A stretch of DNA of 64,000 nucleotides from positions 2,944,001 to 3,008,000 of the forward strand of contig OZ251539.1 of the NCBI GenBank assembly GCA_965243135.1, written 5' to 3'. Position numbers and translations under genes: made by a program. Under the pieces are notes generated by a model. The model did no database searches. It was not told the origin of the DNA and worked only from the letters and a program-made list of their open reading frames with translations. Of the stretch, positions 546 to 60,387 are shown piece by piece; the first letter of the stretch is position 1; each line of letters begins with the position of its first letter. The DNA is from Alphaproteobacteria bacterium (GTDB lineage Bacteria > Pseudomonadota > Alphaproteobacteria > MPNO01 > UBA830).

Positions 546-557
546 GGGCGTTCCTAA

Positions 558-29839: not shown

Positions 29840-29842
29840 CGG

Positions 29843-32800
29843 CTACGCCTGAGACAAGCCGCCCCGGCCGGCCCGCCGCCCGGCCTCCTTCTCCCGCAAG
29901 GCGCGCCGCCGCGCCTCTTCGTCCGGCCAATGGTCGCGCCGGCAATGCGCCAGGGCGTCGGCGAGGCGGAAGATGCGTTCTCCCGTTTCGGGCGGGCGCG
30001 CGCCCCCGGCCTGCCTGACCAGGAGGCCGATCCCGTCCTTTCCGGCGTCCTCGCCGTCGGCCGCGATATCCTCGACGACGGCCTCGATCGTCCGTTCTTC
30101 CAGCGACTCCGACCACGGCCCGGCCTCGACCGTCTCCGTCCACCGGAGAACGTCGCCGCGCGCGAGGTCGGCGGGACCCGCGACGGCCGCCTCCGCGAGT
30201 TCCGCGCCCGGCGCCTCGAGCCGCGACGCGTCGTCCGGCCAGAGCGGTTTCCGGATCGCGTCGTCGCGTTCGTGAGCCTCTTCGACCTCCCGGACCGTCC
30301 AGGAGACGAGGTCGCCGCCCGCGAGGTGCGGGCCGTAGGTTTTCGCGTCCGCGAGAATGGCGCGTCCGGCGGCGAGCAGCCGTTCGCTCTCCGCCCGCCA
30401 GCCGGCGTAGGAGGGAACGTCCCTTATCGACGCCGCCGCGCTGCGTTCCCATTCCGCGAAGAGTTCCGTCCGCCGCGAGTCGTTCCTGTCCGCGGCCGCG
30501 ACGTACTCGTCGATGCGCCGCCGCGCCGCCCGTCCCTCTTCCAGATAGACCAGCGCCCGGTCGATCTGCCGTCCGGCGTCGTCGTCCAGGTCGGCGCGGA
30601 TCGCTTTCATGCGTTCGACGAACTCCGCGTGGCCATCGAGGTACATAACGTGAACTCCGACGTCGTCGGCGCGGACCGAGCGTTCCTTCCAGTCGGCGTT
30701 CAGCCGCTCCAGCCGTTCCTGAAGTCGCCGTCCTTCCGCCGCCCGTTCCGGATCGACCGGCCGCTCGCCGCGATCGATCGCCCGGAACACGTCCTCGGCC
30801 GTCCGCGCGCCGCGGAACGCCTCGCGGATCTTCTCCAGAAGCCGCGCGATCCGCGCGAACAGCCAGGAAACCTGCGCGCCGGTCTCGAGCCGGTTTTCGC
30901 TCCATCGGCGGTAGGCTTCGGCGACGGCCTCTTCGATCTGCGCCTCTTCCGGCCGGTCGGCGTAGCGCGTCCGGATGCCGAAGGCGTCGAGCCATTCGTC
31001 CCGCGCCCGCGCCGCGAGCGCTTCCCAATCGCCGTCGGAAAACGCGCCGAGATCCCGCAGCGCGTGGACGATCTCGTGCCGCAGCACGCTCCGCATCGTG
31101 CCCGGTTCGGCCAGCGCGACCTCGATGACGCCGCGGGCGTAGCGGCCCATCGCCTCGTCCGCCGGATCCGCGGTCAGCCGCAGGCCGACCGCTCCGGCGC
31201 CGATCGCGTCGAGTTCCGCCCGCAATTCCGCGAACGCCGCTTGCCGCTCCGTCTCCGGGAACGTCCGCCGCGGTCCGTCCATCTCCGCGCGACGCGCCTC
31301 GCGCGGTCCGCCGGACGCGCCCGTCAACGGGCCGAGCGCCGCCCGCAGCGCGTCCGGCCCCGGATCGAGCAGGTCGTCGTTCGCGTCCTTGCCCTGCGGC
31401 AGCGCCCGCGAAACCCGGACCTCCGAGTCGGCGAACCGCGCCTGCAGCGATTCCCACGCCCGTTCGCCCGCCGCGTCGCGGTCCTGAACCAGAACCGCCT
31501 CGCGGACCTGCGCCGGAATTTCGACGCCGGCGATCCTTCCGGCCGACAGGGTCGCCGCCACCGCCAGCCCCTGGCGCTCGCCCGGGGTCAGCACCCGCAG
31601 GACGGCCATGGCGTCCTCGATCCCCTCGCACAGCGCGACCCGTTTCGCCGTCCGCGGATCGCCGAACCAGACCGCGCCGCGACCGGGCATGCCCATGTTG
31701 CGCTTGCGGCCCTCGATTTCGGCCGGGCGGCCGTCCGGCGCGAGGAAGATGCGGTGAACCGCTTCCAGGGTTCCGTCGGGCGTCCGCACCGGCGCCAGCA
31801 GCGCCGGCAGCGCCCTGGTTTCGCCGTCCGCCTGGACCCACGCGCCGGGATGGAAGCGAAGATCCTGCGCGTCCGCCGGCGACAGCCCGCGGCGCCGGAG
31901 ATAGCGGGCCGCGGGGGTCTCGGTTCCGACGCCGCGCCCGCTGCGCAGGAACTGCTGAAGCCGCCGCGCGTCGGCCCGCGGCCGTTCCGCGCTCCCGGCT
32001 TCCCGCGCCGCCGCAGGACGGCCGCCGAGAAAGGCGCGGGCCTCGTCCATGGCGTCGACCATCCGCGCATGGCCGCTCGCCGCGCGGATCAGGTCGAGCA
32101 GGTCGCCCTTCTCGCCGGTCGCGGCGTCGGTCCACTTGCCCCGGCGGCCGCCCGCCAGATGGACGTAGAGCGACTGGCCGCGCTCTCCCGCCACCGACCC
32201 CGCCTGCCAGTAGTTGCCGGCGCGCCGGCCGTTCGGCAGCCAGGTCCGGCAGACTTCCTCCGCCCGCGCCGCCAGCGCCGCGGACAGGTCCGCCGCCGAG
32301 GGCCGCGGCGCGCTGCGCTCGGGCGCCGGCGCCATCTCCTCCTCCGCGTTCCGGAACGTGGATTCGCCGTTCCGTTCATGCCCGGGCGCGGCGGCCTTCC
32401 GGTAGCCGTCCGCGCGAAGGTACTGCGTCTCGAATTCGTCCAGGTCATCCTTGCCGATCCCGGCGACGCGGTCCAGCACCGGCGCGTAGCGGCGGGGCTT
32501 CGCCCGCCAGCGCGCCGCCATCTCCAGCGCCGCCGCGTGCCGCGCCAGCGTCGCGGCGAAGGCCGGCTCGGCCGCCACCGCCGGGCCTTCCCGGCGCGCC
32601 CGCTCGCGCAGGTATCCCCAAGCTTCCATGATCTCGCCGCGTTCGCGCGCGAAAGCGCGCATCTCCTCTCCGTAGCGCAGGTCGAGGGCGGCGTTGCGGA
32701 CGGCGCGCGCCATCCTCGCGCTCCAGTTGTCGTTCGCCGCGCGCGCCTCCGCCGTCCGCCCGGCGTCCGCGGCGTCATTGGCCGGCTCCGCGTCCCCGCC

Positions 32801-35782
32801 GCCGGCCGCCTCGCGCCGTTCCGGACCCGCGGCCCGTTCGGCGTCCGCGCGTCCGGAGTCCGGCGCAGCCCCGGAAGTTCCGGCCGACCGCGCGTTCCTT
32901 CCGGCCTTCCCGAAGGCGCCGTCCCGTCCGTCCTCGCGGCCCGGGCTCCGCCCGTCCCGCGCCGCCTCGCGTTCCGCCCGCATCCTGGCCCGCAGCTCGT
33001 CCGACATGTGGTCGACGGCCGCGACCTTCGGCTGCTCCCGCGACCACCGCTGCGCCAGATACTCCTTCACCTCTTCGTCGGTGACCGGCTCGTCCATCCG
33101 GTCTTCCGGCCGCCGCGCCGCGACGTCCATCGCCAGCGGCTCGCGGTCGACGTAGACGTCGAGACCTTTGCGATGACGGGTCGCCGCCGGATAGATCGTC
33201 TCCCTCGCCGGCTTGTCGTCGGCCAGCAGGAACGCATGGTCGACCGTCGCCCCCTGCGCCGAGGTGATCGTCAGGGCGTAGCCGTAGTCGAGCCGGATGT
33301 TGCCCCGGAAGTCCGCGATCTCGTCGTGCGCGAACGTCACCCGCCGTCCGTCTTCCGTATGCGCCTCGATCCACAGCCGGAAATCGTCCCCGCCCGAGGT
33401 CTTCCGCCCATCCGCCAGTTTCTCGATCCGGAAGTCGTCGACCGTGACGATCGTGCCGTTGAACAGCCGCTCGTCCCAGTGCGGCGCGCCGCAGCGCAAC
33501 CGGTCGCCGCGCGCGATCTCCAGCGGCGTCGCCCGCCGGTCGTCCAGTTTCCCCCGCGCGACCCGCACGACCGCCCGCTCTGCGTCCTCGCGCCCGGCGA
33601 GGACGCGCTCCCGCATCAGGAAGGACAGCGCGCCCACCTCCGCGTGCGTGCGCGCCAGAACCATCGTCGACCTGTCCGGGTTCTCGCGCCGGTAGCGGTC
33701 CCAATCGTCGACCAGCGCCGTCAGCGCGCTCTCCCGGTCCGCCGCGAGATGAAACCGCCCGCGCGCGTCCCACGCGGCGATCGCTTCCTCGGCCCGGCAG
33801 TCCTTCAGCGCCTCCGACGCCGCTACCTGCCACGGCGTGAACTCCGGCTTGTCCGCCGTCTCCGCGAACGCCCGGAGGCGCGCCTCGCGCTCCTCCGCCG
33901 GCATCATCCCGGCCTTGAGCCGCGCCGTCTCCGGGTCGAGCCCGTCGACGTGCCGCAGCACGTCGTCGATGTCAGGAAGCTGCCTGCGGATGCGGTCGAC
34001 CCGCGCGCTGCCGGCCACGTCGCGCACCAGCCGCAGTCCCGGCCCGGCCTCCACCGGCTGCTGCTGTTCGGTGTCGCCGGCCCACAGGATCTTCGCTCCC
34101 GTGAGCTTCGACAGCCGCATCAGGCTGTACGCCTGCCGCACCGAAAGCATCCCCGCCTCGTCGACGAAGATCACCGTCCGGTCGTCGATCTCGAGCTGTC
34201 CCTTCGCCGCCATCCGCAGCAGCCGGGCGACCGAATACGGCGGGATTTCGCAGTCGTTGGCGAGCGCCACCGCCGTCCGCCACGCCACCGCGGCGCCCAG
34301 CAACCTGTACCCGCGGTCCCGGTACAGGTCGGCGACCGGCCGCAACGTCGTCGTCTTGCCCGATCCCGCCGCGCCCTCGATGATCGTCACCCGGCCGGCG
34401 CGCCCGGCCGCGTGCCGGATCGCCTCCGTCTGCTCCTCCGACAGCGGGTAGCCGTCCTTCAGCAGCAGCTCGATCTTCGCTTCGATCTCCTGGGCCGGCA
34501 CCGCGAAGCCGGCGGCGCGGACGGCCTCTTCGGCCATATCCCGGATCTCCTCCTCCATCCCGACATGCGCCTTCGTCGAGAAGGCCCGCGTATGCGCGAG
34601 CCCGGCCTCCGCGTCCGCCGAGTCCTCCGGCTTGTCCATGCGCACGATCTCTTCATGGCGCAGCGCGCGCTCCAGGCAGGTCGCGATCGCGTCGCGGTCG
34701 AGCAGCCCCGCGGTCGCGTTCTGAACCCGCTCGACGATGTCGGGCAGGCGGAACACCGCTTCCTCGCGGGTGAGGTCGGCGGGCAGCTTCTCCAGGGTTT
34801 CCGTGAGCTTCCGGATCGCTTCCTGCGTCGTCTCGATCTCGTGCCCGGCCGCTTTTTCGATCATCTCGCGGACGTTCTCGACGAACGCTTCCGCCTCGCG
34901 CCGCCAGCGTTCGTGGCGCTCCTCCGAACCGTTGTCGTGATATTCCTTCCGCGCCCGGGACGACAGGTTCGCCTGCGCCGCCCGCGACGCGTTGCCCTTC
35001 ACCGAATATCCCTTCTTCGCCGCTTCCTCCTCGATCGTCCGCCGCCGCTTCGACCATTCCTCGACCAGATCCTCGGGGATCCCGACGATGCGCGTGAACT
35101 CGCCCCGCGCGCCGTACCGCTCCGTCCGGATGCCGAGCCGCTCCCGGAGGTTCCACGCCAGCGCGTTGCGGTAGGTCGCGCCGGCCGCCATTTTCCATCG
35201 GTAGAGCGGGTACTGGTGGACCGCCCGGAACTTCCCGTCGAAATGCGCCCGCGCGACGTTCAGGATCACGCAGTGCGTATGCAGTTGCGGGTCGTTCGCC
35301 CGCGACGAGCCGTGCTGGAACGTCGCCGCCATCAGGTCGGCGTCGACGACCTTGATGATGCGCTCTCGCGTCCGGATCCGCGTGTAGCTGCAATGCGCGA
35401 CGACGACCTCCTCGAGCGCCGTCCGCGCCGCGTCGTTGTGCGCCCGCTCGATCTCCGCCCGCAGTTCGGGGTCCGCCACCGCCCACAGCGCCGACACCGT
35501 CTTGTCCGCGGAGAACGTCATGTCGAGGCCGGCCGAACGGCCTTCCTTGCCCGCGTTCTGCGTCAGCGCCGACCCGTCGACCGGGGAAAAGCCGCCGTAG
35601 AGAGCCATCCAGTCGGCGGTCTCGACCTTGCCGCCGTCGGCGAGATCGAACAGGCCGGACGGATTGAACCAGACTCCGTCCGGCTCCTCGCCGCCGACGT
35701 AGTACGAATCGGCCGGCCGGTACGACTGTTGGCATTCCATGTAATAGGCGGCGTCCGCCGCCTGGCCGAGCGAGCAGACCAT
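29843..35782 (-). CDS. MobF (TrwC/TraA-like) relaxase-helicase fused to Toprim primase, zincin-like and C-terminal domains
   Basis: YY...YY tyrosines, GLDMTFSADK, FQHGSSRANDPQLHTH, GAAGSGKT, VDEAGM, YGYALTITSAQG; LCEGIEDA and QDRDAAG (Toprim); RHEIVH. Confidence 0.92.
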   Translation of the reverse strand: MVCSLGQAADAAYYMECQQSYRPADSYYVGGEEPDGVWFNPSGLFDLADGGKVETADWMALYGGFSPVDGSALTQNAGKEGRSAGLDMTFSADKTVSALWAVADPELRAEIERAHNDAARTALEEVVVAHCSYTRIRTRERIIKVVDADLMAATFQHGSSRANDPQLHTHCVILNVARAHFDGKFRAVHQYPLYRWKMAAGATYRNALAWNLRERLGIRTERYGARGEFTRIVGIPEDLVEEWSKRRRTIEEEAAKKGYSVKGNASRAAQANLSSRARKEYHDNGSEERHERWRREAEAFVENVREMIEKAAGHEIETTQEAIRKLTETLEKLPADLTREEAVFRLPDIVERVQNATAGLLDRDAIATCLERALRHEEIVRMDKPEDSADAEAGLAHTRAFSTKAHVGMEEEIRDMAEEAVRAAGFAVPAQEIEAKIELLLKDGYPLSEEQTEAIRHAAGRAGRVTIIEGAAGSGKTTTLRPVADLYRDRGYRLLGAAVAWRTAVALANDCEIPPYSVARLLRMAAKGQLEIDDRTVIFVDEAGMLSVRQAYSLMRLSKLTGAKILWAGDTEQQQPVEAGPGLRLVRDVAGSARVDRIRRQLPDIDDVLRHVDGLDPETARLKAGMMPAEEREARLRAFAETADKPEFTPWQVAASEALKDCRAEEAIAAWDARGRFHLAADRESALTALVDDWDRYRRENPDRSTMVLARTHAEVGALSFLMRERVLAGREDAERAVVRVARGKLDDRRATPLEIARGDRLRCGAPHWDERLFNGTIVTVDDFRIEKLADGRKTSGGDDFRLWIEAHTEDGRRVTFAHDEIADFRGNIRLDYGYALTITSAQGATVDHAFLLADDKPARETIYPAATRHRKGLDVYVDREPLAMDVAARRPEDRMDEPVTDEEVKEYLAQRWSREQPKVAAVDHMSDELRARMRAEREAARDGRSPGREDGRDGAFGKAGRNARSAGTSGAAPDSGRADAERAAGPERREAAGGGDAEPANDAADAGRTAEARAANDNWSARMARAVRNAALDLRYGEEMRAFARERGEIMEAWGYLRERARREGPAVAAEPAFAATLARHAAALEMAARWRAKPRRYAPVLDRVAGIGKDDLDEFETQYLRADGYRKAAAPGHERNGESTFRNAEEEMAPAPERSAPRPSAADLSAALAARAEEVCRTWLPNGRRAGNYWQAGSVAGERGQSLYVHLAGGRRGKWTDAATGEKGDLLDLIRAASGHARMVDAMDEARAFLGGRPAAAREAGSAERPRADARRLQQFLRSGRGVGTETPAARYLRRRGLSPADAQDLRFHPGAWVQADGETRALPALLAPVRTPDGTLEAVHRIFLAPDGRPAEIEGRKRNMGMPGRGAVWFGDPRTAKRVALCEGIEDAMAVLRVLTPGERQGLAVAATLSAGRIAGVEIPAQVREAVLVQDRDAAGERAWESLQARFADSEVRVSRALPQGKDANDDLLDPGPDALRAALGPLTGASGGPREARRAEMDGPRRTFPETERQAAFAELRAELDAIGAGAVGLRLTADPADEAMGRYARGVIEVALAEPGTMRSVLRHEIVHALRDLGAFSDGDWEALAARARDEWLDAFGIRTRYADRPEEAQIEEAVAEAYRRWSENRLETGAQVSWLFARIARLLEKIREAFRGARTAEDVFRAIDRGERPVDPERAAEGRRLQERLERLNADWKERSVRADDVGVHVMYLDGHAEFVERMKAIRADLDDDAGRQIDRALVYLEEGRAARRRIDEYVAAADRNDSRRTELFAEWERSAAASIRDVPSYAGWRAESERLLAAGRAILADAKTYGPHLAGGDLVSWTVREVEEAHERDDAIRKPLWPDDASRLEAPGAELAEAAVAGPADLARGDVLRWTETVEAGPWSESLEERTIEAVVEDIAADGEDAGKDGIGLLVRQAGGARPPETGERIFRLADALAHCRRDHWPDEEARRRALREKEAGRRAGRGGLSQA

Positions 35783-35938: not shown

Positions 35939-37274
35939 GTGTGAAGACCAGACATGACCTTTTCGCGGTTGCGGGGGATGGAGTATAGGCGCCGGTCACT
36001 GAAGAGCAAGGGGGACGGGGAGCGGTCGTGAGAGTCCGAGGCCGCCGCTCGCGAGCGTTTCGTTGCGCTGGGGGCCGCGCCGAGGGGGCAGGTTGGAGCG
36101 GCTATCGGGTACCGCCTCTGCCTTCGGGGCGAAATGGACGGCGCGCGAGCGCAATGGCAGCGGCGCGAACAGGCATCGGTTCCCCCGGGCGGCAGGGCCT
36201 GGTCAGCGAAGGGGCGGTACGACCGTCAACCGTTCAGCGGCGCTTGCCGCCTTCGTTTGCGATCGGAGCCGGAAGATCCTTCAGGCGGTCCGGGGGATCC
36301 TGCGCTCAGAGTCCGATCGCCGCATCGGGATCGCCGGCGGCGAGCGCATTCATCCAACCGAGGCAAAGCTCGCGGGATCGGAAGCTTCCGTAAGCCGCGG
36401 CTTCCTGACGTTGAACGATCGGAAAAGTCGAGTAGACGTACCGGACATCGTCGCGGTCGGTCACGCCGTAAAGGTGAAAGAAAACGGCGTCCAGCTTCGC
36501 GCGAAGCGAGAGGCGGCGATCCTCGTCCCAAAGAAACGGCGGCAGGACTTCGCCGTTTCCGTCTACGTGGTCGAGGGCGCTGGCAAAAGGGGCCATGTCG
36601 TGGGCCGTGTGAAGACCAGACATGACCTTTTCGCGGTTGCGGGGGATGGAGTATAGGCGCCGGTCACTGAAGAGCAAGGGGGACGGGGAGCGGTCGTGAG
36701 AGTCCGAGGCCGCCGCTCGCGAGCGTTTCGTTGCGCTGGGGGCCGCGCCGAGGGGGCAGGTTGGAGCGGCTATCGGGTACCGCCTCTGCCTTCGGGGCGA
36801 AATGGACGGCGCGCGAGCGCAATGGCAGCGGCGCGAACAGGCATCGGTTCCCCCGGGCGGCAGGGCCTGGTCAGCGAAGGGGCGGTACGACCGTCAACCG
36901 TTCAGCGGCGCTTGCCGCCTTCGTTTGCGATCGGAGCCGGAAGATCCTTCAGGCGGTCCGGGGGATCCTGCGCTCAGAGTCCGATCGCCGCATCGGGATC
37001 GCCGGCGGCGAGCGCATTCATCCAACCGAGGCAAAGCTCGCGGGATCGGAAGCTTCCGTAAGCCGCGGCTTCCTGCCGTTCAACGATCGGAAAAGTCGAG
37101 TAGACGTACCGGACATCGTCGCGGTCGGTCACGCCGTAAAGGTGAAAGAAAACGGCGTCCAGCTTCGCGCGAAGCGAGAGGCGGCGATCCTCGTCCCAAA
37201 GAAACGGCGGCAGGACTTCGCCGTTTCCGTCTACGTGGTCGAGGGCGCTGGCAAAAGGGGCCATGTCGTGGGCC
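35939..37274. repeat. 668-bp tandem duplication (35939-36606 and 36607-37274)
   Basis: Near-identical copies with two substitutions seen (CCTGACGTTGAAC vs CCTGCCGTTCAAC); GTGT microhomology at the junctions. Confidence 0.95.
35982..36009 (-). promoter_or_regulatory. Putative sigma70 promoter upstream of the relaxase (second copy at 36650-36677)
   Basis: Minus strand TTGCTC-N16-TATACT. Confidence 0.45.
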
Positions 37275-40200
37275 GTGTAGGTCAGTTCCAGCACCGCCTC
37301 GCGGACGATTTCTCCTGCCGACTTCGGTCCGAAATTGATCGTCTCGTAGCGTTCCCGAGGAACGACGGGAAGTTGCTCGATTATGAACAGGTTCAAGTTC
37401 TGTCCCTGGACCTTCTGGCGGACGACGTAATCCAGCGGAACCGAATTGAGGTTGGCGACCAGCAGTGCGGTAGTGCCTGCCGGATCTTCGCCGACGTTGA
37501 GCAACGGCAGGGAATTTCCGGCTCCGCACACGGGCAGGACCGCGGCGATCATCGACCGCATGTTCGTTGGAGAGGTGACATGTTTCAAGCCGAGAACGTA
37601 CGACGTACCGGGAAGTTCCGCCCCTTCCTTCAACACCCAGAATTGCGGATCAGGCAGCCAGTCCGGGTCCTGGTGCTGCTTTGCCGTCGCCGGCGCCGGC
37701 TGTGCGGGACGGTGCACGTTCTCCCGGTTCACGGCGACGCTGGCTGCCCGGTGGTCGTACGCCTGCACCATCTTGCCTTCGTAGAGCGGCAGCCACTCGC
37801 CCTTCGGGCTGTCGTAGCGATTTCCGCCGACCAACCAGGCGCCTTCCTTTTCCTCGAGTTCCCACCGCATCCGGAAAAGATGGGAATCGTTGGTCATGTC
37901 GAACATCCGGGTATAAGTCACCGGCCAGACGGCGACCGGCTCGCCCCCCGAACGGTCGACCAGAACCGGCAGGCGTTCGTAGATGGCCGTCGTCAGTTCC
38001 GCGTCGCGGGGGGTGCGGAATATCGGCGCGGTGCCGGTGTTGGGATTAACCCGCGCGAACTCCGCAGCGGTCAGCGGAAAACTGCGCTCCGGGATTTCGG
38101 AAACGGCATGCATGTAGAACGCGCACCGCGCCGGCGCGCCGGTCGGCGACCCGGAAGCGACAAAGACGCAGAATTTGAAACGGCTGTCCACATCCGGAAA
38201 AAAGCCTCTTTTGTTCTCGAAGTCGTACAGCGCCCTGAGTCGGCCCGCGGTCGCTACGCTCTTGAAGAAATCGGCAGCGGTCTTATCCGAGGCGATGCCG
38301 GAAGGCGTGAGCAGTCCGACGATGCCTTCCGGCCGGATCAGCGCCATGGCGCGCTCGACGAACAACGCATAAAGGTTCATGTCGCCGCATGACAACAGGG
38401 GATAATCGTTCGAGGCGCGCGCCATGCGCGCCATGGCCTCGGCACGTTCGCGGGCTTCGTCGTATTCCGCCGCGAGCGGATCCTCTTCCCGTTCCATAGC
38501 GGCAATCATGCGCCTGCGGTCAGCGGCGCGGGTCGCTGCCGCGATCTCCAGACGCCGCGCCGCAAACCACTCCACCTGTTGCAACTTCACCCGGTCCCAG
38601 GGTGGATTGCCGACAACCGCATCGAAACCCCCCTCGCGGTCACGCGCCTGCCAATTTCTCCAGACGCCGGGAAACGCCACCTGCCAGCTGAGAAATCGTT
38701 CGTCGGCCATCAACCCGAAGGCACGTCGGAGAAGCCCGGCGAAACGTTCCGCATCCGCGCCGGTGGCCGCCACGCCTGTCCGCCCCAGCGCTATGTCGAG
38801 CGGATCTCCGAATTGGCCGTCGAAGAAGGCATGCACGGCGCTAGTGTCTTCAGGTTCGCAAATCCAGTCGAGGGCGTGCACCAGCGAAAGAAAGGCGTCC
38901 AGCGGCGCTGTGCGTTCGCGAACGTCGTCAAAAATTTCCGCCGATCTGTCGGCTTCCGCGATTTCGGCGTCCGTCAGCGCCTCGATCGTCTCCATTTCCC
39001 TTTCCGCGGAGGTCGCCCGCCGCAACGGTTCGTGCAGCAGCAGCGGCGACCCGTGCGCGGCCGCCCGGTCGGTTCCCTCCCGAACCCAGGATCCGAACAG
39101 GCTGTTCCCGCAGCGGAGGTGGTGATCAAGGAAGCTCAGCGGCGCTCCGACAGTGAAGGTATGCAACCAGAGCGCCACCTTCGCGAGCTCTACCGCCATC
39201 GGATTCTTGTCTACGCCGTAGACGCAACGCTTGAGCACCATCCGCCGAACGATGTGACGGTCGTCGAGCCGCTCCGGGTCGATAGTCCAGCTCCCGGCCT
39301 CCGCGTTGGCCAGCACGGTGCGGCGGATGTCCGCGATGCGCGCGTTCAACGGCGAACGGTAGCCGTCTACCGCCGCCTCCGCATCGGCGATCGCGGCAAG
39401 AGTGCGATCCGATAGGTAATCCACCACGCCGACCAAGAAATGCCCTGAACCCATCGACGGATCGCACACCTTGAGCAGCAAGATCGCTTCCGCAGGATCG
39501 AGTCTCTCGAGCGATTTTTCTCCGGCCCGGGCAGCGTCCATAAACGCATCGAGGCGGGCGTCAATCAGCGGGTCGAGCGTCTCCCGCAAGACTACCCCGA
39601 CGAGGTCGTCCGGCGTGTAATAGCTCCCTGAGCTTTTGCGGGCGAAGAGGTTGGGGCGAATCGCTATGCCGCCCTCCTCGCGCGCGATCTCCTGCTCCAG
39701 CAAACGCTCGTAGATGGATCCGAGTTGTCCGACGCCGAGGTCCCGGTAGTTGATGTATCGGCGTCCGGGACCCTCGTAAGACAGGATGTCGATCACTTCC
39801 GACATCACGTCGTCGCCGATCCTGATGCGCTCCAGAAGCGGCATCCGCCTCCGGTCGAACAACCCGCCGTTGTATGGCGGCAGTCCGATCCTCGGGTCTC
39901 CCTCGCCGACGATTCGGCAGAGATCGTCGATCGCCGTCCAGTAGCGGGTGGTGGCCGGCGAAAACGGAAGCCCCTGGTTCAAGCGATTTCCGATCTCGCC
40001 TCGCACCTTTTCCCGCAGGGCGTAGTCCGCGTAACGGGGATCGCGGACCGGAAGCAGGTCGCGATCCTCCGCATAGAGAATGAAGAGCAGCCGGTAAAGC
40101 AGAATCAGCGTGGCTTCCCGTACCTCGGCAGCCGCCGCGTCCGGCGCGCCGGCCGCGATCGCGCCGGCGAGCACCGGGAAGACCCGCCCGAAGATCGTTT

Positions 40201-40951
40201 CCGACAGATTGGCGGCGACGCGTTGTTCGTAGAAACGGCTTTTCTCGATGGAGCGCTCGTGGAACGTTCGCTCGTCCGCCGGTCCGGGACGGAAGCTGTT
40301 CCGCTGGAAGAGCAGCGAGAAAACCTTGAACCACCAGCGGCGCTCGTCGGGAGAAAGTTCTCCCGAAAGGCCGAGCGCTGCCGACAGATCGACTTCCAGA
40401 AACTGTTCGGCGATCGAGCGGGCGCCGGAAAAATAGAGTCGCCACCGTTCGCCGTTCGACAGGATCCCCCAGCGAATGGCGCCGTCCGTGAGGATTTCGG
40501 CGCGGCGGAGATAGTGGATCATCTGGTGCGACGGCGCGGACAGTCCGCCGCGGTCCGACGCGCGGTCCAGCGGGAGACGCCAGCGTTTCGCCTCGACGAT
40601 GGCGAGCCCGAGCGTGTAGCGGCGCGCTTCGTCGGCAAACTCGTTAGCTCGCATTTTCGCCGCGTCGTCGAGAAAAAGAAGCCCGTCCGGAACTTCGCTT
40701 CGCCCGCGGATCGAAAGGTTCTGCTGGCGAAGGTTCGCCGTCCAGCCGAGCCGATCCAGCACCGGCCAGATCAGGTCGTCCTCGGTCTGCGTCTCGTTCG
40801 GCGTCCCGCCCGTCGGAAAAACGTCGAAAATGCCGCGGATTTCCCTTTCGAGATCGTCCGCATCACCGAGACCGCGCCACTCCGGGGTCTCGGCGATAGT
40901 GTCGGTCAGGAAATCTTCAGCGAACAGGCTGCCGCGAATAGGTATGCTCAC
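36974..40951 (-). CDS. Type IIG (Eco57I-like) fused restriction endonuclease-methyltransferase
   Basis: VPDGLLF...VEAKRW nuclease motif, KSSGSYYTP, DPSMGSGHF, GNPPW. GTG at 40951 follows GGAGG. Confidence 0.9.
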   Translation of the reverse strand: MSIPIRGSLFAEDFLTDTIAETPEWRGLGDADDLEREIRGIFDVFPTGGTPNETQTEDDLIWPVLDRLGWTANLRQQNLSIRGRSEVPDGLLFLDDAAKMRANEFADEARRYTLGLAIVEAKRWRLPLDRASDRGGLSAPSHQMIHYLRRAEILTDGAIRWGILSNGERWRLYFSGARSIAEQFLEVDLSAALGLSGELSPDERRWWFKVFSLLFQRNSFRPGPADERTFHERSIEKSRFYEQRVAANLSETIFGRVFPVLAGAIAAGAPDAAAAEVREATLILLYRLLFILYAEDRDLLPVRDPRYADYALREKVRGEIGNRLNQGLPFSPATTRYWTAIDDLCRIVGEGDPRIGLPPYNGGLFDRRRMPLLERIRIGDDVMSEVIDILSYEGPGRRYINYRDLGVGQLGSIYERLLEQEIAREEGGIAIRPNLFARKSSGSYYTPDDLVGVVLRETLDPLIDARLDAFMDAARAGEKSLERLDPAEAILLLKVCDPSMGSGHFLVGVVDYLSDRTLAAIADAEAAVDGYRSPLNARIADIRRTVLANAEAGSWTIDPERLDDRHIVRRMVLKRCVYGVDKNPMAVELAKVALWLHTFTVGAPLSFLDHHLRCGNSLFGSWVREGTDRAAAHGSPLLLHEPLRRATSAEREMETIEALTDAEIAEADRSAEIFDDVRERTAPLDAFLSLVHALDWICEPEDTSAVHAFFDGQFGDPLDIALGRTGVAATGADAERFAGLLRRAFGLMADERFLSWQVAFPGVWRNWQARDREGGFDAVVGNPPWDRVKLQQVEWFAARRLEIAAATRAADRRRMIAAMEREEDPLAAEYDEARERAEAMARMARASNDYPLLSCGDMNLYALFVERAMALIRPEGIVGLLTPSGIASDKTAADFFKSVATAGRLRALYDFENKRGFFPDVDSRFKFCVFVASGSPTGAPARCAFYMHAVSEIPERSFPLTAAEFARVNPNTGTAPIFRTPRDAELTTAIYERLPVLVDRSGGEPVAVWPVTYTRMFDMTNDSHLFRMRWELEEKEGAWLVGGNRYDSPKGEWLPLYEGKMVQAYDHRAASVAVNRENVHRPAQPAPATAKQHQDPDWLPDPQFWVLKEGAELPGTSYVLGLKHVTSPTNMRSMIAAVLPVCGAGNSLPLLNVGEDPAGTTALLVANLNSVPLDYVVRQKVQGQNLNLFIIEQLPVVPRERYETINFGPKSAGEIVREAVLELTYTAHDMAPFASALDHVDGNGEVLPPFLWDEDRRLSLRAKLDAVFFHLYGVTDRDDVRYVYSTFPIVERQEAAAYGSFRSRELCLGWMNALAAGDPDAAIGL

Positions 40952-41109
40952 AGGCCTCCGCTCCTCGACGTTCCACCGCACTTGGCGACCTCCTTACCAT
41001 GCGCGCCGCGATTCAGGAACTCAGACGCGAAACGTGGGGTTAGCGATGCGGGAATTCTTGCCAACGCCCTGACGCCGGGCTTGTTCTTCCGGGGCTTGCG
41101 ACGCCCGCG

Positions 41110-54391: not shown

Positions 54392-55750
54392 CTACGCCGA
54401 AACGCCGTAGCTTCGGGCGTGCGCCCGCTGCGCCGCCCGCTCGGCGTTCTTTTCTTCGAGGGCATTCTGCCGCTCCGTTCCTTCCTTTCCGGCGCTCCGC
54501 TCGCCCCGGAACAGGTCGTTGCCGGTTCTGCTGATGCGGTCGCCGGCTTCGAGCGCGACGGTCCCCTCGGAATTCCGGACGAGGAGGCTAACCGCATCTT
54601 CGCCCGCGTCGTCGGCGTCGACCACGAAATCCTCGACCACGGCCTCGACCGTGCGCCGGCCAGCGACCGAGGGCCACGGCCCGGTGCGGACCTCTTCGGT
54701 CCACCGGATCAGGTCGCCGCGGACGATGTCGTCCGGTCCCGCCAAAGCGTGCGCCGGGACGCCCCGGAACAGTTCCCCCTGCACCGCAGGCTCCGTGGTC
54801 ACCGACGGCGTCGCTCCCACCGCGACCGTCTCTTCCCGGGTTTCCTCCAAGGTCTCCGTCCGCCGGTAACCTTCGGTCAGCCCGTTCAGGAACTCGGCCG
54901 CCTTCGCGGCGTGCGACGCCGCCGTGAAGAATGCTTTCTTGTCGTCCTTCATCACCGCCATCCAAGCGCCGATGTAGGCCGCATGGTCCTCGCGCACCTC
55001 CGGCGCGATCCCCGTCTCGGCGCCGACGAAGGCGGAACCCAGCTCGGCCGTCAGCTCCTCCATCGCGTAGCCGTTGTCGCCGAAGCGCTTCTGCCCGAAA
55101 TTCCGGTCCAGACGGTCCGGATGCCGCGTCCAGTGGGTGATCTCGTGCATCGCCGTCGCGTAGTAGCCGAGCGGCTCCCGGAACGCCGCGAAGGACGGCA
55201 ACTGAACGTAATCGCCGGCCGGGCTGTAGTAAGCCTTGTCGCCGCCGTGCCGCAGTTCCACGCCGGTCGCCTGGAGCCACGCCTCCGCCCCCTCGATCCG
55301 CGCCGCCGGGCTCATCTCCTCCGACTTCCGCTCGTAGTACTGTTGCGGCAGGCCGTCGATCTGGGCGACGTTGAAGACGGTGTAGCCCTTCATGACCGGA
55401 ACTTCCTTCTCCTCCTCGATTCCGGTCTCGGGATCGACCTCCTTCTTCGTCCAGGTCTTGGCGAAGGTGACGAGGACGCCCTTTTCGCCCTTGCGGACAT
55501 TGCCGCCGAGTTCCTGCGCCTGACGGTAGGTCATCCAGGTGGGCTTGTCGTAGCCGCGCTCGGAGGCGGCGGACCAGAGGAGAACGACGTTGGTGCCGCG
55601 GTAGGGTTCGCCGTTGTGGCGGAGGGGCAGGGTCGGAGCCGGCTTCTCCGCCTCGACGCCGGTCTCCCACGGCCGCTGCCACGGGCGCACGCCTTTTTCG
55701 AGCTGCGCCAGGATCGTATCGGTGACCTCCTGGTAGATGTCTCTCGCCAT
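54392..55750 (-). CDS. ardC: ArdC antirestriction ssDNA-binding protein with an extra C-terminal domain
   Basis: PWQRPW, YRGTN, WMTYRQA, VRKGEKG, YTVFNVAQ, HEITHWT, YAMEELTAELGSA. Confidence 0.92.
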   Translation of the reverse strand: MARDIYQEVTDTILAQLEKGVRPWQRPWETGVEAEKPAPTLPLRHNGEPYRGTNVVLLWSAASERGYDKPTWMTYRQAQELGGNVRKGEKGVLVTFAKTWTKKEVDPETGIEEEKEVPVMKGYTVFNVAQIDGLPQQYYERKSEEMSPAARIEGAEAWLQATGVELRHGGDKAYYSPAGDYVQLPSFAAFREPLGYYATAMHEITHWTRHPDRLDRNFGQKRFGDNGYAMEELTAELGSAFVGAETGIAPEVREDHAAYIGAWMAVMKDDKKAFFTAASHAAKAAEFLNGLTEGYRRTETLEETREETVAVGATPSVTTEPAVQGELFRGVPAHALAGPDDIVRGDLIRWTEEVRTGPWPSVAGRRTVEAVVEDFVVDADDAGEDAVSLLVRNSEGTVALEAGDRISRTGNDLFRGERSAGKEGTERQNALEEKNAERAAQRAHARSYGVSA

Positions 55751-55937: not shown

Positions 55938-56858
55938 TCACTCGTTCTCGGTCTTGGCCCGCCACTCTTCCGCCATGCGTTGCGCGCGCCCGAGTTCCGA
56001 TTTCGACAGACGCCCCGCGATGCCATCGCGCAACTCGACGGCCTTCTCGCGTTCCTCGCCGGCCAGCCGGGAGGCGGCCAGGTTCATCCATACATGCGCT
56101 CGAAGGTAGTTCTGGGGAACGCCCACGCCGAGGAAGTACATGCTCCCAAGCCTGCGCTGAGCCCCGGTGTGTCCCTGTTCGGCGGCGCGGCGGGACCACT
56201 TCGCCGCCTCGGCGGCGTCCTCTGCAACGCCCTCGCCGCTGGTGTACATGATCCCGAGGTTGAACTGAGCTTCGGCGTGTCCCTGCTCGGCGGCGCGGCG
56301 ATACCACTTCGCAGCCTCCGCAGCGTCCTCTGCAACGCCCTCGCCGCTGGTGTACATGATCCCGAGGATGAACTGAGCCTTGGCGTGTCCCTGTTCGGCG
56401 GCGCGGCGATACCACTTCGCAGCCTCGACCACGTCCGCCGCAACGCCCTTGCCGAGATTGTACATGCCCCCGAGCCTGAGCTGAGCTACGGCGAAACCCT
56501 GTTCAGCAGCACGGCGGTACCACTTCACAGCCTCGGCGTCATCCTCCGCAACGCCCTCGCCGATGGCGTACATGTGCCCGAGGAGAAACTGAGCGCCGAC
56601 GTCCCCCTGTTCGGCGGCGCGGCGATACCATTTCGCCGCCTCGGCGTCGTCCTTCGGGACGCCCTGGCCGTTGTCGTACATGAGCCCGAGCCAGGACTGA
56701 GCATAAGCGTTTCCCTGTTTGGCCAGCCGTTGAAAGCCGCGCAAGGCCGTTGCGTAATCGCCACGATCATAGGCCGCCTGGGACTCTTCGAACGTCTGGG
56801 CTGTCGCCGACGCGGCAAACGTCGCCAAGACGAGCGCAAGTACAAGGAAAATCTTCAT
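55938..56858 (-). CDS. Secreted Sel1-repeat protein
   Basis: Signal peptide MKIFLVLALVLATFAASATA; five to six 36-aa repeats (AAKWYRRAAEQG.A.AQ..LG.MY..G.GV). Confidence 0.92.
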   Translation of the reverse strand: MKIFLVLALVLATFAASATAQTFEESQAAYDRGDYATALRGFQRLAKQGNAYAQSWLGLMYDNGQGVPKDDAEAAKWYRRAAEQGDVGAQFLLGHMYAIGEGVAEDDAEAVKWYRRAAEQGFAVAQLRLGGMYNLGKGVAADVVEAAKWYRRAAEQGHAKAQFILGIMYTSGEGVAEDAAEAAKWYRRAAEQGHAEAQFNLGIMYTSGEGVAEDAAEAAKWSRRAAEQGHTGAQRRLGSMYFLGVGVPQNYLRAHVWMNLAASRLAGEEREKAVELRDGIAGRLSKSELGRAQRMAEEWRAKTENE

Positions 56859-57126
56859 CGGCCGACTGCCTCCCGTGCGCGCGTCCAGGCGAATCGTCCC
56901 ACGATAACCCGCGCCGTTGCCGAAACCAAACCGCCCCGCAACGACCGCTTTCCCGAACGCCGGCCGACCGCCGCAGGTCGCGATTGACAGGCCGGCCGGC
57001 GGGATGCAGGATTCGTCCATGAACGTCTGGCCCGATTGACCGGAGCGCGGACTTGCTTCCGCCGCCGCCCCGGTGCGCCTCCCGGACCCGCCCGGGAAGC
57101 CACCGCATCCTGGGCGCCCGCCCGCC

Positions 57127-57783
57127 GTGAGCGAACGCCCCTGGACGCAGGCCAGGTTTCGGGCCTTCGCCGCCGTCGCTTTCGGATCCTCCCTCGATCC
57201 GGTGCGCGACCTCGCGGAAGCCCTCTCCATCCCCTTGTGGGCCGCCCGCGGCTGGGCGTCCGGCGAGAACCCGATCCCGACCGAACGAAGCCGAAGGTTC
57301 GCGGAATTCTACCGCCGCGCCACCCGGCAGATCGCGCATTTTCGCCGCGAAGCATGGCTGTACGCGTTCAGCCCGCTGGACGAGGCCGGCGAGTCGCGGA
57401 AGTACGTCGTCCACCTCGACGATCCGCCGACGGTGACCGCCATCCGGGAAGACGGATCCCCCTCCCCGGGACCGCCCGGCGAATGGCTGCTCGCGCACGG
57501 CGATGACCCGGACGAGGAGGGCGGCTACCGCCAGTATCTGATCCACTTCCCCACGCCGCAATTCGTGTGCCGGGTCGTGACCTGCGGCCTGGACGGCAAG
57601 GCGTTCGCCTGGGAAGGCGAAGTCGACGGCGTGACCGGGATCCGCTGGCGAGCCGATTCCGACATCCTGTTCTGCGAATTCCAGTGGATCGACCCGGCAC
57701 CCGAACCCGAGGTTCTGCTCGAACTGCTGCAGGTCGCGGGAGACATTCAGATGGACGACGCCGCGCGGAACGCCCGCCGCTGA
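57127..57783 (+). CDS. Hypothetical protein with an N-terminal HTH-like motif
   Basis: VRDLAEALSIPLWAARGWASGENPIP; start uncertain. Confidence 0.55.
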   Translation: MSERPWTQARFRAFAAVAFGSSLDPVRDLAEALSIPLWAARGWASGENPIPTERSRRFAEFYRRATRQIAHFRREAWLYAFSPLDEAGESRKYVVHLDDPPTVTAIREDGSPSPGPPGEWLLAHGDDPDEEGGYRQYLIHFPTPQFVCRVVTCGLDGKAFAWEGEVDGVTGIRWRADSDILFCEFQWIDPAPEPEVLLELLQVAGDIQMDDAARNARR

Positions 57784-57814: not shown

Positions 57815-59341
57815 TCATTCGATCGCGAAGGCGATCATGGCGTCGACCCGCGGATGCAGCCGAAGCTCGAACGTCTTGCTTCCGCGGTGCACTTCCAATT
57901 CGATGCGATCGACCAGTTCCCGGAACCGCAGCAGGGCCTCCTTTCGGGTCTCGTTCTTCGCGGCGGCTTCGGCGAGGCGATCGAGGTTGGCCTTCAGGTT
58001 CCCGAGCAAGGCCTCCGGCGACCGAACCTCGGGGCGGGACATGGAGTCCAGTTCCATCTTCCGGACGGCGACCGATCGCTCCAGCTCGTCGATGCGCCGG
58101 TTCACGGCGCCGGGACGGCGTCCTCCCTGCTCGATGCTGTCGAGCAGGTGGGCGATCTTGCTTTCCCCGTCTTCGATTTCGCTGGTTGCGATCCGCCGCC
58201 TTTCCTCGAGTTCCCTGACCGCCGCGGCGATCAGCGCCCGGCCTTCGTCCCAGCGCTCCGCCCATCGGATCGCCTCCTGGATCGCCCGATTCTCGACCTT
58301 CCTCACCGCCGCGTGGCCGATGGCGTCGCAACCCATCCGCTGGGACCGCGACTTGCAGAAATAATTTTCGCCGGCCATGACCCACATCGCGCCGCCGCAT
58401 TGCGAGCAAACGAGCCTCGCGGTCAGCGGATTGGGAATGCGCTTTCCTCGGCCCCTGGACCGGTCGGCGCCCGCCCGCCGCCGCAGCTGCACCCGGTGCC
58501 AGAGATCCTCGTCGACGATCTGCAGGCTTGGCATTTCCTTGACGATCCAGTCGCTCTCCGGATTGTGGCGCGGCTGCGGCTGATTCGTGACCGGGTCCGT
58601 CACCGTGCGCGTGCGGCCGTACACGGCGAGACCCCGGTACATCGCATTGTTGAGCACCCCGCTTCCCAGATTCCTCTGACCGTTGATGGAGTTCTGGTTC
58701 CACAGCTGTCCGCGCGGCCCCGGAACGCCTTCCTCGTTGAGGGTGAACGCGATCCTGCTCGGGGTCGCGCCATCGGCGTACATGCGAAAGATTCTCCGCA
58801 CGATTTCCGCTTCCTCGGGAACGATCGTGCGCTTTCCGCGCGGCTCGTCGGGACGGCGGGGCGGGATTTCGTAGCCGTAACCCGGCGGCCCCTGCATGCG
58901 GCCGCGGTGCACGGCGCCCTGCTTGCCCCGCCGCGTCTTGTGCGAGAGAGCCGTGAGAAAGGCCTCGTTGATGATCCCCTTGAGCCCGACGTGCATGGAC
59001 GTGATCTCTCCCTCTTCGCAGGTGAACAGCTCGATCTCGTGGAAGGTCAGGCGCTTGTAGATTTGGATCGTATCGGCCTGATCCCGGCTGAGGCGGTCGA
59101 GCGCCTCCGCCCAGACCACGTCGAATTCGCCGCGCTCCGCCGCGTCCATCAGCTGGGCCAGCCCGTCCCGCCAACGCGTGCTCGCGCCCGAAAGCGCCCT
59201 GTCGGTGAACGTGGCCACGACCACGTCGCCGCATTCCTCGATCCGCCTCCTGCACAACGCGATCTGGTCCTCGATCGACCTCGGATTCTGCGAGAACGAC
59301 GAGTAACGGGCGTAAATCGCCGCGCGCTTGGGTTGCTTCAT
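57815..59341 (-). CDS. Large serine recombinase (integrase)
   Basis: AIYARYSS catalytic Ser, LDRLSRD, PGYGY, recombinase domain, CSQCGG...C zinc ribbon, coiled coil. Confidence 0.93.
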   Translation of the reverse strand: MKQPKRAAIYARYSSFSQNPRSIEDQIALCRRRIEECGDVVVATFTDRALSGASTRWRDGLAQLMDAAERGEFDVVWAEALDRLSRDQADTIQIYKRLTFHEIELFTCEEGEITSMHVGLKGIINEAFLTALSHKTRRGKQGAVHRGRMQGPPGYGYEIPPRRPDEPRGKRTIVPEEAEIVRRIFRMYADGATPSRIAFTLNEEGVPGPRGQLWNQNSINGQRNLGSGVLNNAMYRGLAVYGRTRTVTDPVTNQPQPRHNPESDWIVKEMPSLQIVDEDLWHRVQLRRRAGADRSRGRGKRIPNPLTARLVCSQCGGAMWVMAGENYFCKSRSQRMGCDAIGHAAVRKVENRAIQEAIRWAERWDEGRALIAAAVRELEERRRIATSEIEDGESKIAHLLDSIEQGGRRPGAVNRRIDELERSVAVRKMELDSMSRPEVRSPEALLGNLKANLDRLAEAAAKNETRKEALLRFRELVDRIELEVHRGSKTFELRLHPRVDAMIAFAIE

Positions 59342-60387
59342 GTTTTTCTCCCTTCGATTGACGCATGCTCGTTCGCATGCGCGGCCTGCATATCGGGCGC
59401 TCCCGCGGCTTGCGACCGGCCCCCGCCGATCCAGTGCAGGAACGCCTCGCGTTCGGCTTCGTTCGCCATGCGCCACGCCCGGCGGAGCGCCGCCAACCGA
59501 CGGCTCTCCGGAGTCCCGCGCCGCGCCGCCCGGCCTTCCGTTCCGGCCCTCCGGGCCCGTCCGAGGGCCTCGTCGAGGGTTTTCGGCGGCTCGCCGCCGT
59601 CCCGGACGATTTCCGCGATCCGGCGCTGCTCCTCGGGGCGCATTTCGGCCAACCTCTCCAGGTCGCGTTGCCTGTCCGCCAGCGGCGTGCCGTCCAGGGC
59701 GTCCGCAAGTTCGGGGGCGATCTCCTTTCCGATCCGCACGGCGCGTCGCACCGTCCGCGGCGACAATCCGGTCCGCTGTCCGGCGTCTTCGGCGAACGCC
59801 GCGGCCGCCGGCCCGGAGCAGGTGGCCAACTTGGCCTCTTGCTCTCCATCGCCCGGAGCCTCGTCCACGGAGCAAGTGGACAAGTTGGCCACTTGCGACC
59901 TGGCCCCGCCGTGCCGGGTTTCCGGATGCAGCCGCTCGTAGATTTCCTTCCGCGCCGCCAGGAACCGCGCCCGGTCGAGCGCCGATAGTTCGGCACGGGC
60001 GAGGTTCTCGTCGATCTCCACGAGTCGCGCCTCGTCGAGCGGAACGTCGATCACAAGCGCCTCGATCGCGGTCCAGCCGAGTTTCCGCGCCGCTTTGATC
60101 CGGTGCGCGCCGGCGACCAGGGCGAACAGGCCGGCTTCACGGCGCCCGCTTTCCGGGTCGCGGTGCGGACGCAGCACGACGGGAGACTGCAATCCGATCT
60201 CCCGCATCGACTCGGCGATTCGCGCCACCTGTTCGGCGTCGAGCCGTCCCCGCAGCCTGGCCTCGATCCGTATCGCGTCGAGCGCGACCGGCACCGTCCT
60301 GCGCGGACGCGCCTCGTCGACCTCAAGGCCGCCCGCCGCCGCGCGCGATCGTTCAAGCGCCGCGGCCAAGCTCTTGCGGCGGCTCAT
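59338..60387 (-). CDS. parB: ParB/RepB-family partition protein
   Basis: SMREIGLQSPV, LVAGAHRIKA, IDENLARAEL, HTH TGLSPRTVRRAVRI. Confidence 0.88.
   Translation of the reverse strand: MSRRKSLAAALERSRAAAGGLEVDEARPRRTVPVALDAIRIEARLRGRLDAEQVARIAESMREIGLQSPVVLRPHRDPESGRREAGLFALVAGAHRIKAARKLGWTAIEALVIDVPLDEARLVEIDENLARAELSALDRARFLAARKEIYERLHPETRHGGARSQVANLSTCSVDEAPGDGEQEAKLATCSGPAAAAFAEDAGQRTGLSPRTVRRAVRIGKEIAPELADALDGTPLADRQRDLERLAEMRPEEQRRIAEIVRDGGEPPKTLDEALGRARRAGTEGRAARRGTPESRRLAALRRAWRMANEAEREAFLHWIGGGRSQAAGAPDMQAAHANEHASIEGRKT
59817..59897. repeat. Two 27-bp palindromes inside parB (parS candidates)
   Basis: AGCAGGTGGCCAACTTGGCCTCTTGCT (59817-59843) and AGCAAGTGGACAAGTTGGCCACTTGCG (59871-59897), starts 54 bp apart. 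Confidence 0.65.

Follow-up and report, generated by a model that had tools for sequence, protein, structure and literature searches.

A C-terminal module shared by the ArdC protein and the MobF relaxase of an integrated I-type conjugative element is a diverged relative of DUF7699 and a possible docking signal

INTRODUCTION

Folded C-terminal signals are known on relaxases and on other cargo of type IV secretion systems (T4SSs), among them the BID domain with its positively charged tail and the translocation-signal domain of TraI (TSA), both treated in PMC6509941, and XVIPCD of the Xanthomonas T4SS effectors (PMC8740702). Here, we describe a C-terminal module shared by an ArdC anti-restriction protein and a MobF relaxase, both encoded within a 64,000-nucleotide (nt) stretch of the genome of Alphaproteobacteria bacterium GCA_965243135.1 (contig OZ251539.1, positions 2,944,001 to 3,008,000 of the forward strand), hereafter called the window. 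The genome is a single contig of 6.1 Mb, and the window is chromosomal (C1:2944001-3008000), lying in an integrated conjugative system. By sequence, the module belongs to a diverged branch of the Pfam family PF24766 (DUF7699), and it may act as a signal that docks its carrier proteins to the secretion machine.

The BID domain of Bartonella effectors and alphaproteobacterial relaxases resembles the module in several respects: as described in PMC6509941, it is a folded C-terminal domain of approximately 100 residues with a short charged tail, is common to relaxases and other proteins, and sometimes occurs in tandem. However, the same description has BID as a four-helix bundle with a hook that is tied to VirB/VirD4 machines, whereas the module is a predicted β-barrel followed by a helix and the machine at this locus is of the I type (DotI/IcmL and type IV pilus genes upstream, no match to PF03135 in the genome); moreover, the signal function of BID is proven, whereas that of the module is a candidate role. 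XVIPCD is likewise a C-terminal domain, of approximately 120 residues and with a tail, on otherwise unrelated proteins, and it binds the all-α domain of VirD4; its core is described as α-α-β-β-β and its tail as Gln-rich (PMC8740702), whereas in the module five to six strands precede a helix and the end is rich in Arg. Pfam scans gave no sequence link between the two, no dedicated XVIPCD profile comparison having been made. The TSA of plasmid R1/F is also a folded signal on a relaxase, and its SH3-like subdomain superposes on the module model no better than many unrelated Tudor, Sm, and SH3 barrels do; it is internal and part of a helicase-like fold, whereas the module is terminal.

Two further relationships concern proteins of phages and other mobile elements. 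The peptidase domain of ArdC is of the type found in the polyvalent proteins of Iyer et al. 2017, and DUF7699 co-occurs with the domains ddrB-ParB, ART-PolyVal, and LPD38 in proteins of 1.5 to 4.1 thousand residues. The main text of that article contains neither the word "SH3" nor "barrel," and its supplement may list the domain under another label (PMC5512222). With DUF7699 itself, the module shares a profile match over 107 columns and the predicted order of secondary structure elements; it differs in that the window copies fall below detection by the Pfam model, have an acidic barrel, and do not have the polar motifs of typical members. In addition, typical members are stand-alone phage proteins, whereas the window copies are located at the ends of ArdC and the relaxase.

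RESULTS

The C termini of ArdC and the MobF relaxase are homologous

The genes, the module copies, and the duplicated DNA are located as follows.

54392-55750, minus strand: ardC gene, 452 residues; ArdC-N single-stranded-DNA-binding domain, zincin-like metallopeptidase, linker of about 50 residues, shared C-terminal module
54494-54754, minus strand: β-barrel part of the ArdC module (approximately residues 333-419); acidic, net charge about −9, limits from the AlphaFold2 model
54395-54478, minus strand: C-terminal helix of the ArdC module (approximately residues 425-449) and last three residues; Arg-rich, net charge +2
29843-35782, minus strand: MobF relaxase-helicase-primase gene, 1979 residues
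29846-30187, minus strand: relaxase copy of the module (residues 1866-1979); acidic barrel, Arg-rich helix, end R-G-G-L-S-x-x
25012-25231, minus strand: decayed third copy, in three pieces (25163-25231, 25069-25134, and 25012-25065) and two reading frames
24789-25217, no strand assigned: DNA duplicate of 29223-30068, 80 to 85% identical, containing the third copy

By its domain composition, the protein encoded at 54392-55750 is an ArdC anti-restriction protein, combining ArdC-N (ArdcN, PF08401, residues 4-126, E 7.8e-43) with a zincin-like metallopeptidase (MPTase-PolyVal, PF18818, residues 154-280, E 5.7e-50). The module occupies residues 335-452 (54395-54748). The original prediction, made from the letters of the window, had regarded typical ArdC proteins as shorter, and this agrees with the ArdC of R388, which is described in PMC7213743 as having 297 residues and has no such extension. 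Two ArdC paralogues elsewhere in the genome, 92% and 89% identical to the window copy, also carry the module. Directly upstream of ardC lies a gene for a Sel1-repeat protein (55938-57230, minus strand; six repeats, E 2e-57), and beyond it are a large serine recombinase (in the open frame 57818-60136), ParA, and a RepC-like gene.

The relaxase can be assigned to the MobF family on the basis of its TrwC relaxase domain (PF08751, residues 10-299, E 1.6e-64) and its superfamily 1 helicase (AAA_30, PF13604, residues 447-602, E 6.3e-37); consistently, it scored 197 bits with the NCBIfam MobF model (NF041492), the cut-off of which is 100. Further Pfam domains were DUF7146 (residues 1272-1373) and Toprim_3 (residues 1382-1476). 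In a BLASTP comparison, ArdC residues 335-442 aligned without gaps to the relaxase C terminus, with 50 of 108 positions identical (46%, E 1e-25). The homology that had been predicted is thus confirmed, and the earlier hand count of 39 identities in 74 positions proved exact for the first 74 columns. A compositional artefact of the high G+C content was considered and rejected, as the alignment is ungapped, has a strong E value, and is matched by a profile made from unrelated low-G+C phage proteins.

The charged helix and Arg-rich tail of the original prediction were borne out with respect to arginine but only weakly with respect to positive charge, the net charge of the last 35 residues being +2 in ArdC and +4 in the relaxase. 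In the 86 family members with a near-terminal module, the last 30 residues had a mean net charge of +2.1, with 41% of the members at +3 or above and 29% at 0 or below. Because this charge is often not positive, "Arg-rich helix" is a better description of the module end than "positive tail."

A third, decayed copy, likewise anticipated near 25010-25230, was found as frameshifted pieces, of which the first and the second are each followed by an in-frame stop. The DNA duplication around it covers the 3' end of the relaxase gene together with the 3' end of a convergent 320-residue open reading frame (ORF; 28877-29839, plus strand). Because it is located inside this duplication, the third copy is, by sequence, the remnant of a second relaxase 3' end; an independent gene was considered and rejected in view of its nature as a frameshifted DNA duplicate. 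Further remnants of relaxase 3' ends are scattered over several other sites of the genome. The neighboring ORF at 20084-25081 (minus strand) has 1665 residues and a weak match to NACHT-type NTPases (E 5e-5); its annotated upstream end passes through the relaxase remnant in another frame, and its true start is probably located further downstream. Between the remnant and the relaxase gene, an ORF at 26953-28557 encodes a 534-residue protein, within which five tandem units of 141 to 150 nt (27641-28513, plus strand; 60 to 71% identical) encode TPR_10/TPR_12 repeats.

The module is a diverged branch of DUF7699

A profile of five module copies from this genome (A1) was searched against 1.84 billion representative proteins and yielded 138 matches at E ≤ 0.001. 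A Pfam scan covered 105 of these, the 33 omitted ones all being long proteins with several partial matches, and PF24766 was present in 68 of the 105 (20 of 40 plus 48 of 65). When A1 was compared by hhalign with an alignment of 47 Pfam-verified DUF7699 proteins (A2), the two matched over 107 columns with a probability of 99.5% (E 6.5e-23), and a profile made from A2 only matched ArdC residues 340-444 (5.7e-23) and relaxase residues 1871-1972 (3.3e-17). The ESM Atlas feature search also had DUF7699/PF24766 clusters as nearest neighbors (scores 0.94 and 0.93). Pfam gave no match for four module copies even at E ≤ 10, the PF24766 cut-off of 27 bits not being reached, and the PF24766 model had no match across the whole genome at E ≤ 1. 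Scans of the module with NCBIfam and of 57 alignment members with PHROGs were likewise negative (no match and 0 of 57, respectively). At the level of profile comparison, the module is a diverged relative of DUF7699 that is missed by Pfam's own model.

Part of the A1 matches had to be set aside. Specifically, 44 of the 138, all long proteins with several partial matches, were treated as artefacts rather than as family members: they matched A1 only and neither A2 nor the combined alignment A3, in up to 19 stretches covering positions 5-75 of A1. All 11 of them that were included in the Pfam scan (P0007, P0012-P0015, P0019, P0021, P0022, P0030, P0033, and P0041) carry a Por_Secre_tail domain, which serves sorting by the type IX secretion system, and some also contain bacterial Ig-like domains. 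Such matches warn of false positives from profiles of low diversity.

Several searches of other collections were negative with the queries used. There was no match in tblastn searches of PLSDB plasmids with the window module or of GenBank phages and PLSDB with P0067, a typical DUF7699 protein, and pattern scans with the window-type A1 gave no relatives in genome contigs, IMG/VR, or metagenome contigs. None of 401 sampled genomes of the phylum had a PF24766 match, which is a weak negative since the control also matched nowhere. A full-text literature search retrieved no paper naming "DUF7699," nor did any paper bring together ArdC, a relaxase, and a C-terminal "translocation signal." New here is a branch of a known family missed by Pfam's model, in a known kind of arrangement.

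Predicted fold of the module

AlphaFold2 was run on a 57-row alignment for a 127-residue segment of ArdC. The resulting model (predicted local distance difference test [pLDDT] 82, predicted template modeling score 0.73) has strands at residues 8-10, 22-30, 37-52, 60-71, 80-84, and 92-94 of the segment, and five to six strands are predicted to form a small SH3/Tudor-like β-barrel, after which comes an Arg-rich helix of approximately 25 residues. A typical DUF7699 protein was modeled at a pLDDT of 93 with strands and helix in the same order as in the window copy. Barrel and single helix agree with the suggestion that the module would be SH3-like and unlike the four-helix bundle of BID.

Foldseek found no match to the model at E ≤ 0.001 in the Protein Data Bank (PDB) or BFVD, and when PDB sequences were searched with a profile, no match had an E value below 0.8. 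In a comparison with 48,161 chains by VIA-align, the best match was the N-domain of Pelota (Z 7.3, root mean square deviation [rmsd] 3.9 over 90 residues), followed by Tudor, chromo, Sm, and SH3-like barrels at Z 5 to 7; 64 chains reached Z ≥ 5 and none Z ≥ 8, and all were generic matches of small barrels. The fold guess of the original prediction is consistent with these Tudor, Sm, and SH3 matches. Within the tied group were also TraI entries, namely 9f0x_H (residues 632-710; Z 5.8, rmsd 4.0 over 73 residues) and the translocation-signal domain of R1 TraI, 4l0j_A (residues 635-706; Z 5.7, rmsd 2.9 over 66 residues). The model of the typical DUF7699 protein superposed on 4l0j_A with Z 5.2, again tied with many barrels. 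Because the Z scores are tied with those of dozens of unrelated Tudor, Sm, and SH3 barrels, the models do not support a specific structural link to the TraI TSA.

Carriers of the module and two branches of the family

After local re-scoring, 94 of the 138 A1 matches were retained as family members. Proteins of up to 200 residues account for 62 of them; among the longer ones, 24 have the module within 40 residues of the C terminus and 8 have it internally. The listing of partners by profile search, which had been proposed as a check, returned ArdC (P0003, P0017, and P0026) and TrwC relaxases (P0004, P0010, and P0097) as named C-terminal partners. Four other C-terminal carriers (P0088, P0116, P0119, and P0029) are probably relaxase fragments, because they match relaxase C-terminal regions beyond the module, and four more (P0018, P0083, P0111, and P0140) have nothing in common with relaxase C termini except the module. 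The internal carriers include P0056 (with ddrB-ParB), P0063 (ART-PolyVal and LPD38), P0075 (ADP-ribosyltransferase and SprT-like peptidase), and P0098 (4104 residues, weak N6-methylase match). By this co-occurrence with polyvalent-type domains in multidomain proteins, DUF7699 belongs to the polyvalent repertoire.

Among 60 related genomes searched, five contain the module, on six TrwC/AAA_30 relaxases and on two proteins of 346 and 376 residues without a Pfam family. All six relaxases have it at the extreme C terminus, preceded at a distance of about 85 residues by a second, weaker copy in tandem. In a relative of the same genus, the 376-residue carrier is encoded approximately 10 kb from an ArdC of normal length (355-residue frame) that does not have the module; both genes lie in a decayed element with RepC-like and ParB-like genes.

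A quick maximum-likelihood tree of 99 module sequences separated a part of 32 rows, holding all 10 relaxase and all 4 ArdC copies, from a part of 67 rows made up of the typical stand-alone and polyvalent copies, the support for this split being weak (75, quick method). The ArdC and relaxase groups of the window type are sisters (SH-aLRT 94). The ArdC copies of P0017 and P0026 are placed on a separate branch, and the module has therefore been fused to ArdC recurrently. The net charges of the two groups are as follows; the contrast is partly circular, the conjugative group having been picked from the tree and from the partner proteins.

14 conjugative-type copies: barrel net charge, mean −4.6; median isoelectric point (pI), 5.45; helix net charge, mean +2.3
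74 typical copies: barrel net charge, mean +4.2; median pI, 9.8; helix net charge, mean +2.6

Each window copy has a barrel net charge of −9, and the polar motifs that are invariant in typical members are absent from it.

The distribution over ArdC proteins bears on the view that the module is a neutral product of recombination, copied by chance from the relaxase onto ardC and without a role there. The many relaxase 3'-end remnants, at 25012-25231 and elsewhere in the genome, show that rearrangement is frequent, which speaks for this view. Yet the ArdC and relaxase copies are only 46% identical while the open frame and the predicted fold have been kept, all three ArdC paralogues retain the module at 89 to 92% mutual identity, and the independent ArdC lineage of P0017 and P0026 has another version of it. 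Furthermore, at least seven further ArdC clusters of 454 to 458 residues with the module were found in a word-indexed search, the candidate list of which was crowded by close ArdCs. We consider a chance origin very improbable.

On the phage side, an alignment of 16 typical DUF7699 members (A4) retrieved 84 relatives from IMG/VR, located at 78 loci, and among genomes it matched 32 loci that are spread over many phyla. This branch consists of basic stand-alone proteins of tailed phages, approximately 130 residues long, and also occurs inside polyvalent proteins. PHROGs was used to scan 150 ORFs from 8 of the 78 viral loci. In six of the eight, the DUF7699 gene lies between recombination/replication genes and the terminase, and in one it stands among the baseplate genes of a 290-kb phage; in the remaining one, the domain is internal in a 2065-residue ORF (L096:4146-10340, IMG/VR) that adjoins tail-fiber genes and is a candidate virion-borne polyvalent protein. 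None of the DUF7699 ORFs at these eight loci, the 2065-residue one included, matched a PHROG.

This breadth of carriers fits an explanation in which the module works on the recipient side during establishment, its barrel and helix binding incoming DNA, a host factor, or a defense protein in the newly entered cell. In phages it would be a small protein produced early or one piece of a polyvalent protein that is injected, in conjugative elements it would be attached to proteins that reach the recipient or are the first to be made there, and its C-terminal position would merely reflect a common site of domain accretion. The family indeed spans stand-alone phage proteins, polyvalent proteins, ArdC, and relaxases, and Iyer et al. 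tie this set of proteins to the early phase of invasion (PMC5512222). The basic character of the phage branch (median pI 9.8) is as expected for a nucleic acid binder, CarD and the UvrD C-terminal domain, which are SH3/Tudor-like and contact RNA polymerase, are among the fold matches, and the ArdC of R388 is described as acting in the recipient (PMC7213743). However, the barrel of the window branch is acidic and the polar motifs conserved in the phage branch are gone from it, so that the window branch need not share the activity of the phage branch, and the strict extreme C-terminal position on relaxases and the tandem copies are left unexplained. On balance, a recipient-side role appears rather unlikely.

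The I-type element and its sisters

The 40 kb upstream of the window encode DotI/IcmL, a PilS-like pilin, a shufflon-type PilV, a secretin, two T2SSE ATPases, TcpQ, and a 702-residue coupling protein with PF02534, TraG-D_C, and TrwB_AAD_bind domains, and the VirB4 family (PF03135) had no match in the genome. By gene content, the element is an integrated I-type (IncI/Dot-Icm-like) conjugative system; the window adds the serine recombinase, ParA, and the RepC-like protein beside ardC. The chromosome contains three related I-type elements, at approximately 373-497 kb, 2.90-3.01 Mb, and 5.41-5.55 Mb, each with its own coupling protein, DotI/IcmL, ArdC, and MobF relaxase.

The 1600-residue relaxases of the two sister elements (L014:1657-6456, at C1:433717, and L015:1394-6262, at C1:5475544) have TrwC, DUF7146, and Toprim domains and no AAA_30 match. 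Neither they nor a fourth relaxase of 1303 residues matched any of the three module profiles. The sister relaxases end instead in a low-complexity stretch rich in Gly, Glu, and Arg, followed by a terminal R-G-x-[LFMW]-[SG]-x motif. All full-length MobF relaxases examined (window 29846-29875, L014, L015, L016, and L036-L041) end in this motif, with the module or without it, and the C-terminal ends of ArdC are looser versions of it. The motif is thus more widely retained than the barrel and may be the more general terminal signal.

The sister elements also bear on the possibility of a homotypic tether, in which the acidic barrel of one copy would pair with the basic helix of a second copy. In this way ArdC would be carried along by the relaxase-DNA complex, or ArdC and the relaxase would assemble in a single relaxosome, and the module would make no contact with the secretion machine. 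Barrel and helix are opposite in charge, the copies on ArdC and on the relaxase of the element are each other's closest relatives, and tandem copies are present in the relaxases of relatives, all of which speaks for such pairing; in the sister elements, however, ArdC has the module but the relaxase does not, and a partner copy is missing there. We regard a tether as improbable.

Among 61 genomes (the window genome and its 60 relatives, which comprise only two genera and are mutually related), DotI/IcmL was found in 8 and the module in 6. All six module genomes are DotI-positive, and the module is absent from the 53 genomes that are DotI-negative (Fisher 5e-7).

Within the element, a large defense island separates the T4SS genes from the relaxase gene, at window positions 3-19471 as well as 36977-40993 and at L013:15149-19999. 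PADLOC gave the following matches in the window.

3-626, running into the window: DruE-like helicase
2229-8042: type IIG restriction-modification/DrmMI-like frame of 1938 residues (E 0)
7223-10456: DrmD (E 9e-195)
10626-11327: HEC-07-like
12657-14300: Vsr and C5 methylase
18170-19471: DrmC-like PLD (E 3e-121)
36977-40993: second DrmMI/IIG-like gene

A 140-residue open frame within the island (17574-17993, plus strand) matches positions 107-191, in the middle of the PF02534 family (E 3e-5), and is probably a fragment of a coupling-protein gene.

DISCUSSION

Relaxases are T4SS substrates, and the explanation that we favor, tentatively and with a little less than even confidence, is that the module serves as a docking or substrate signal for the coupling protein of the element or for its adaptors. 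Barrel and helix, together with the terminal R-G-x-[LFMW]-[SG]-x motif, would form a modular signal by which the carrier protein is recruited to these components, and the relaxase, plus ArdC made in the donor, would reach the recipient before the DNA or together with it. The signal would have two parts, in analogy to BID and its tail, with a different fold taken over from a phage or polyvalent-protein domain. What suggests such a role is, first, position and fusion: the module is strictly terminal on every relaxase that carries it, 24 of the 32 family proteins longer than 200 residues have it within 40 residues of the C terminus, it has been fused recurrently, in two ArdC lineages as well as on small proteins of unknown nature that belong to the same elements, and it occurs in tandem in the relaxases of relatives. 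Second, the ArdC and relaxase copies within the element are close kin, the module is tied to one type of machine, the I type, and its surface has been remodeled to an acidic barrel relative to the phage branch. Third, folded C-terminal signals have precedents in BID, XVIPCD, and the TraI TSA. Transfer of protein cargo during conjugation has been described for the ArdC of pSa, TraC1 of RP4, and Sog of IncI (PMC5512222 and PMC7213743).

A considerable number of observations weigh against docking. The original prediction would have counted membership in a known unrelated family, or broad occurrence in non-conjugative proteins, against a translocation signal, and this applies in part: the module is related to a known family, DUF7699, whose main branch resides in tailed phages. 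Phages have no T4SS, and all eight sampled viral loci have terminase, portal, tape-measure, baseplate, or tail-fiber genes within 8 kb of the DUF7699 gene. The expected location at the C termini of relaxases and other cargo holds for MobF relaxases, ArdCs, and proteins of unknown nature but not for 8 of the 32 family proteins longer than 200 residues, in which the module is internal; four of these eight are of the polyvalent type. Within the genome itself, the ArdCs of both sister elements have the module while their 1600-residue relaxases do not, the coupling protein of at least one sister element is 82% identical to that of the window element, and the coupling-protein family is common (540 matches at E ≤ 1e-20), the module being rare. 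Co-occurrence of module and DotI is to be expected from physical linkage alone, and two of the eight DotI-positive genomes do not have the module. The weak support for the split into two branches counts on the same side, as does the ArdC of R388 (297 residues), which according to PMC7213743 is required by the recipient but not by the donor.

A more specific evolutionary scenario is, in our estimate, rather doubtful. A basic barrel that stands alone in phages would have been co-opted by I-type elements as an acidic, strictly C-terminal docking module common to the relaxase, ArdC, and other establishment proteins, which would constitute a new structural class of substrate signal for conjugative type IVB systems, and the anti-restriction protein would be shipped ready-made by the donor together with the DNA, unlike the ArdC of R388, which has to be made in the recipient.

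Irrespective of its function, the module places DUF7699 in a first context, which connects phages, polyvalent proteins, and conjugative relaxases, and it widens the family by members beyond the reach of Pfam's model. Substrate recognition by conjugation systems of the I type/type IVB is poorly understood, BID, XVIPCD, and the TraI TSA having come from other system types. Should the module be a signal, it would offer a sequence handle for the protein cargo of I-type elements, including the unknown carriers of 265 to 376 residues, and anti-restriction proteins could then be supplied by the donor.

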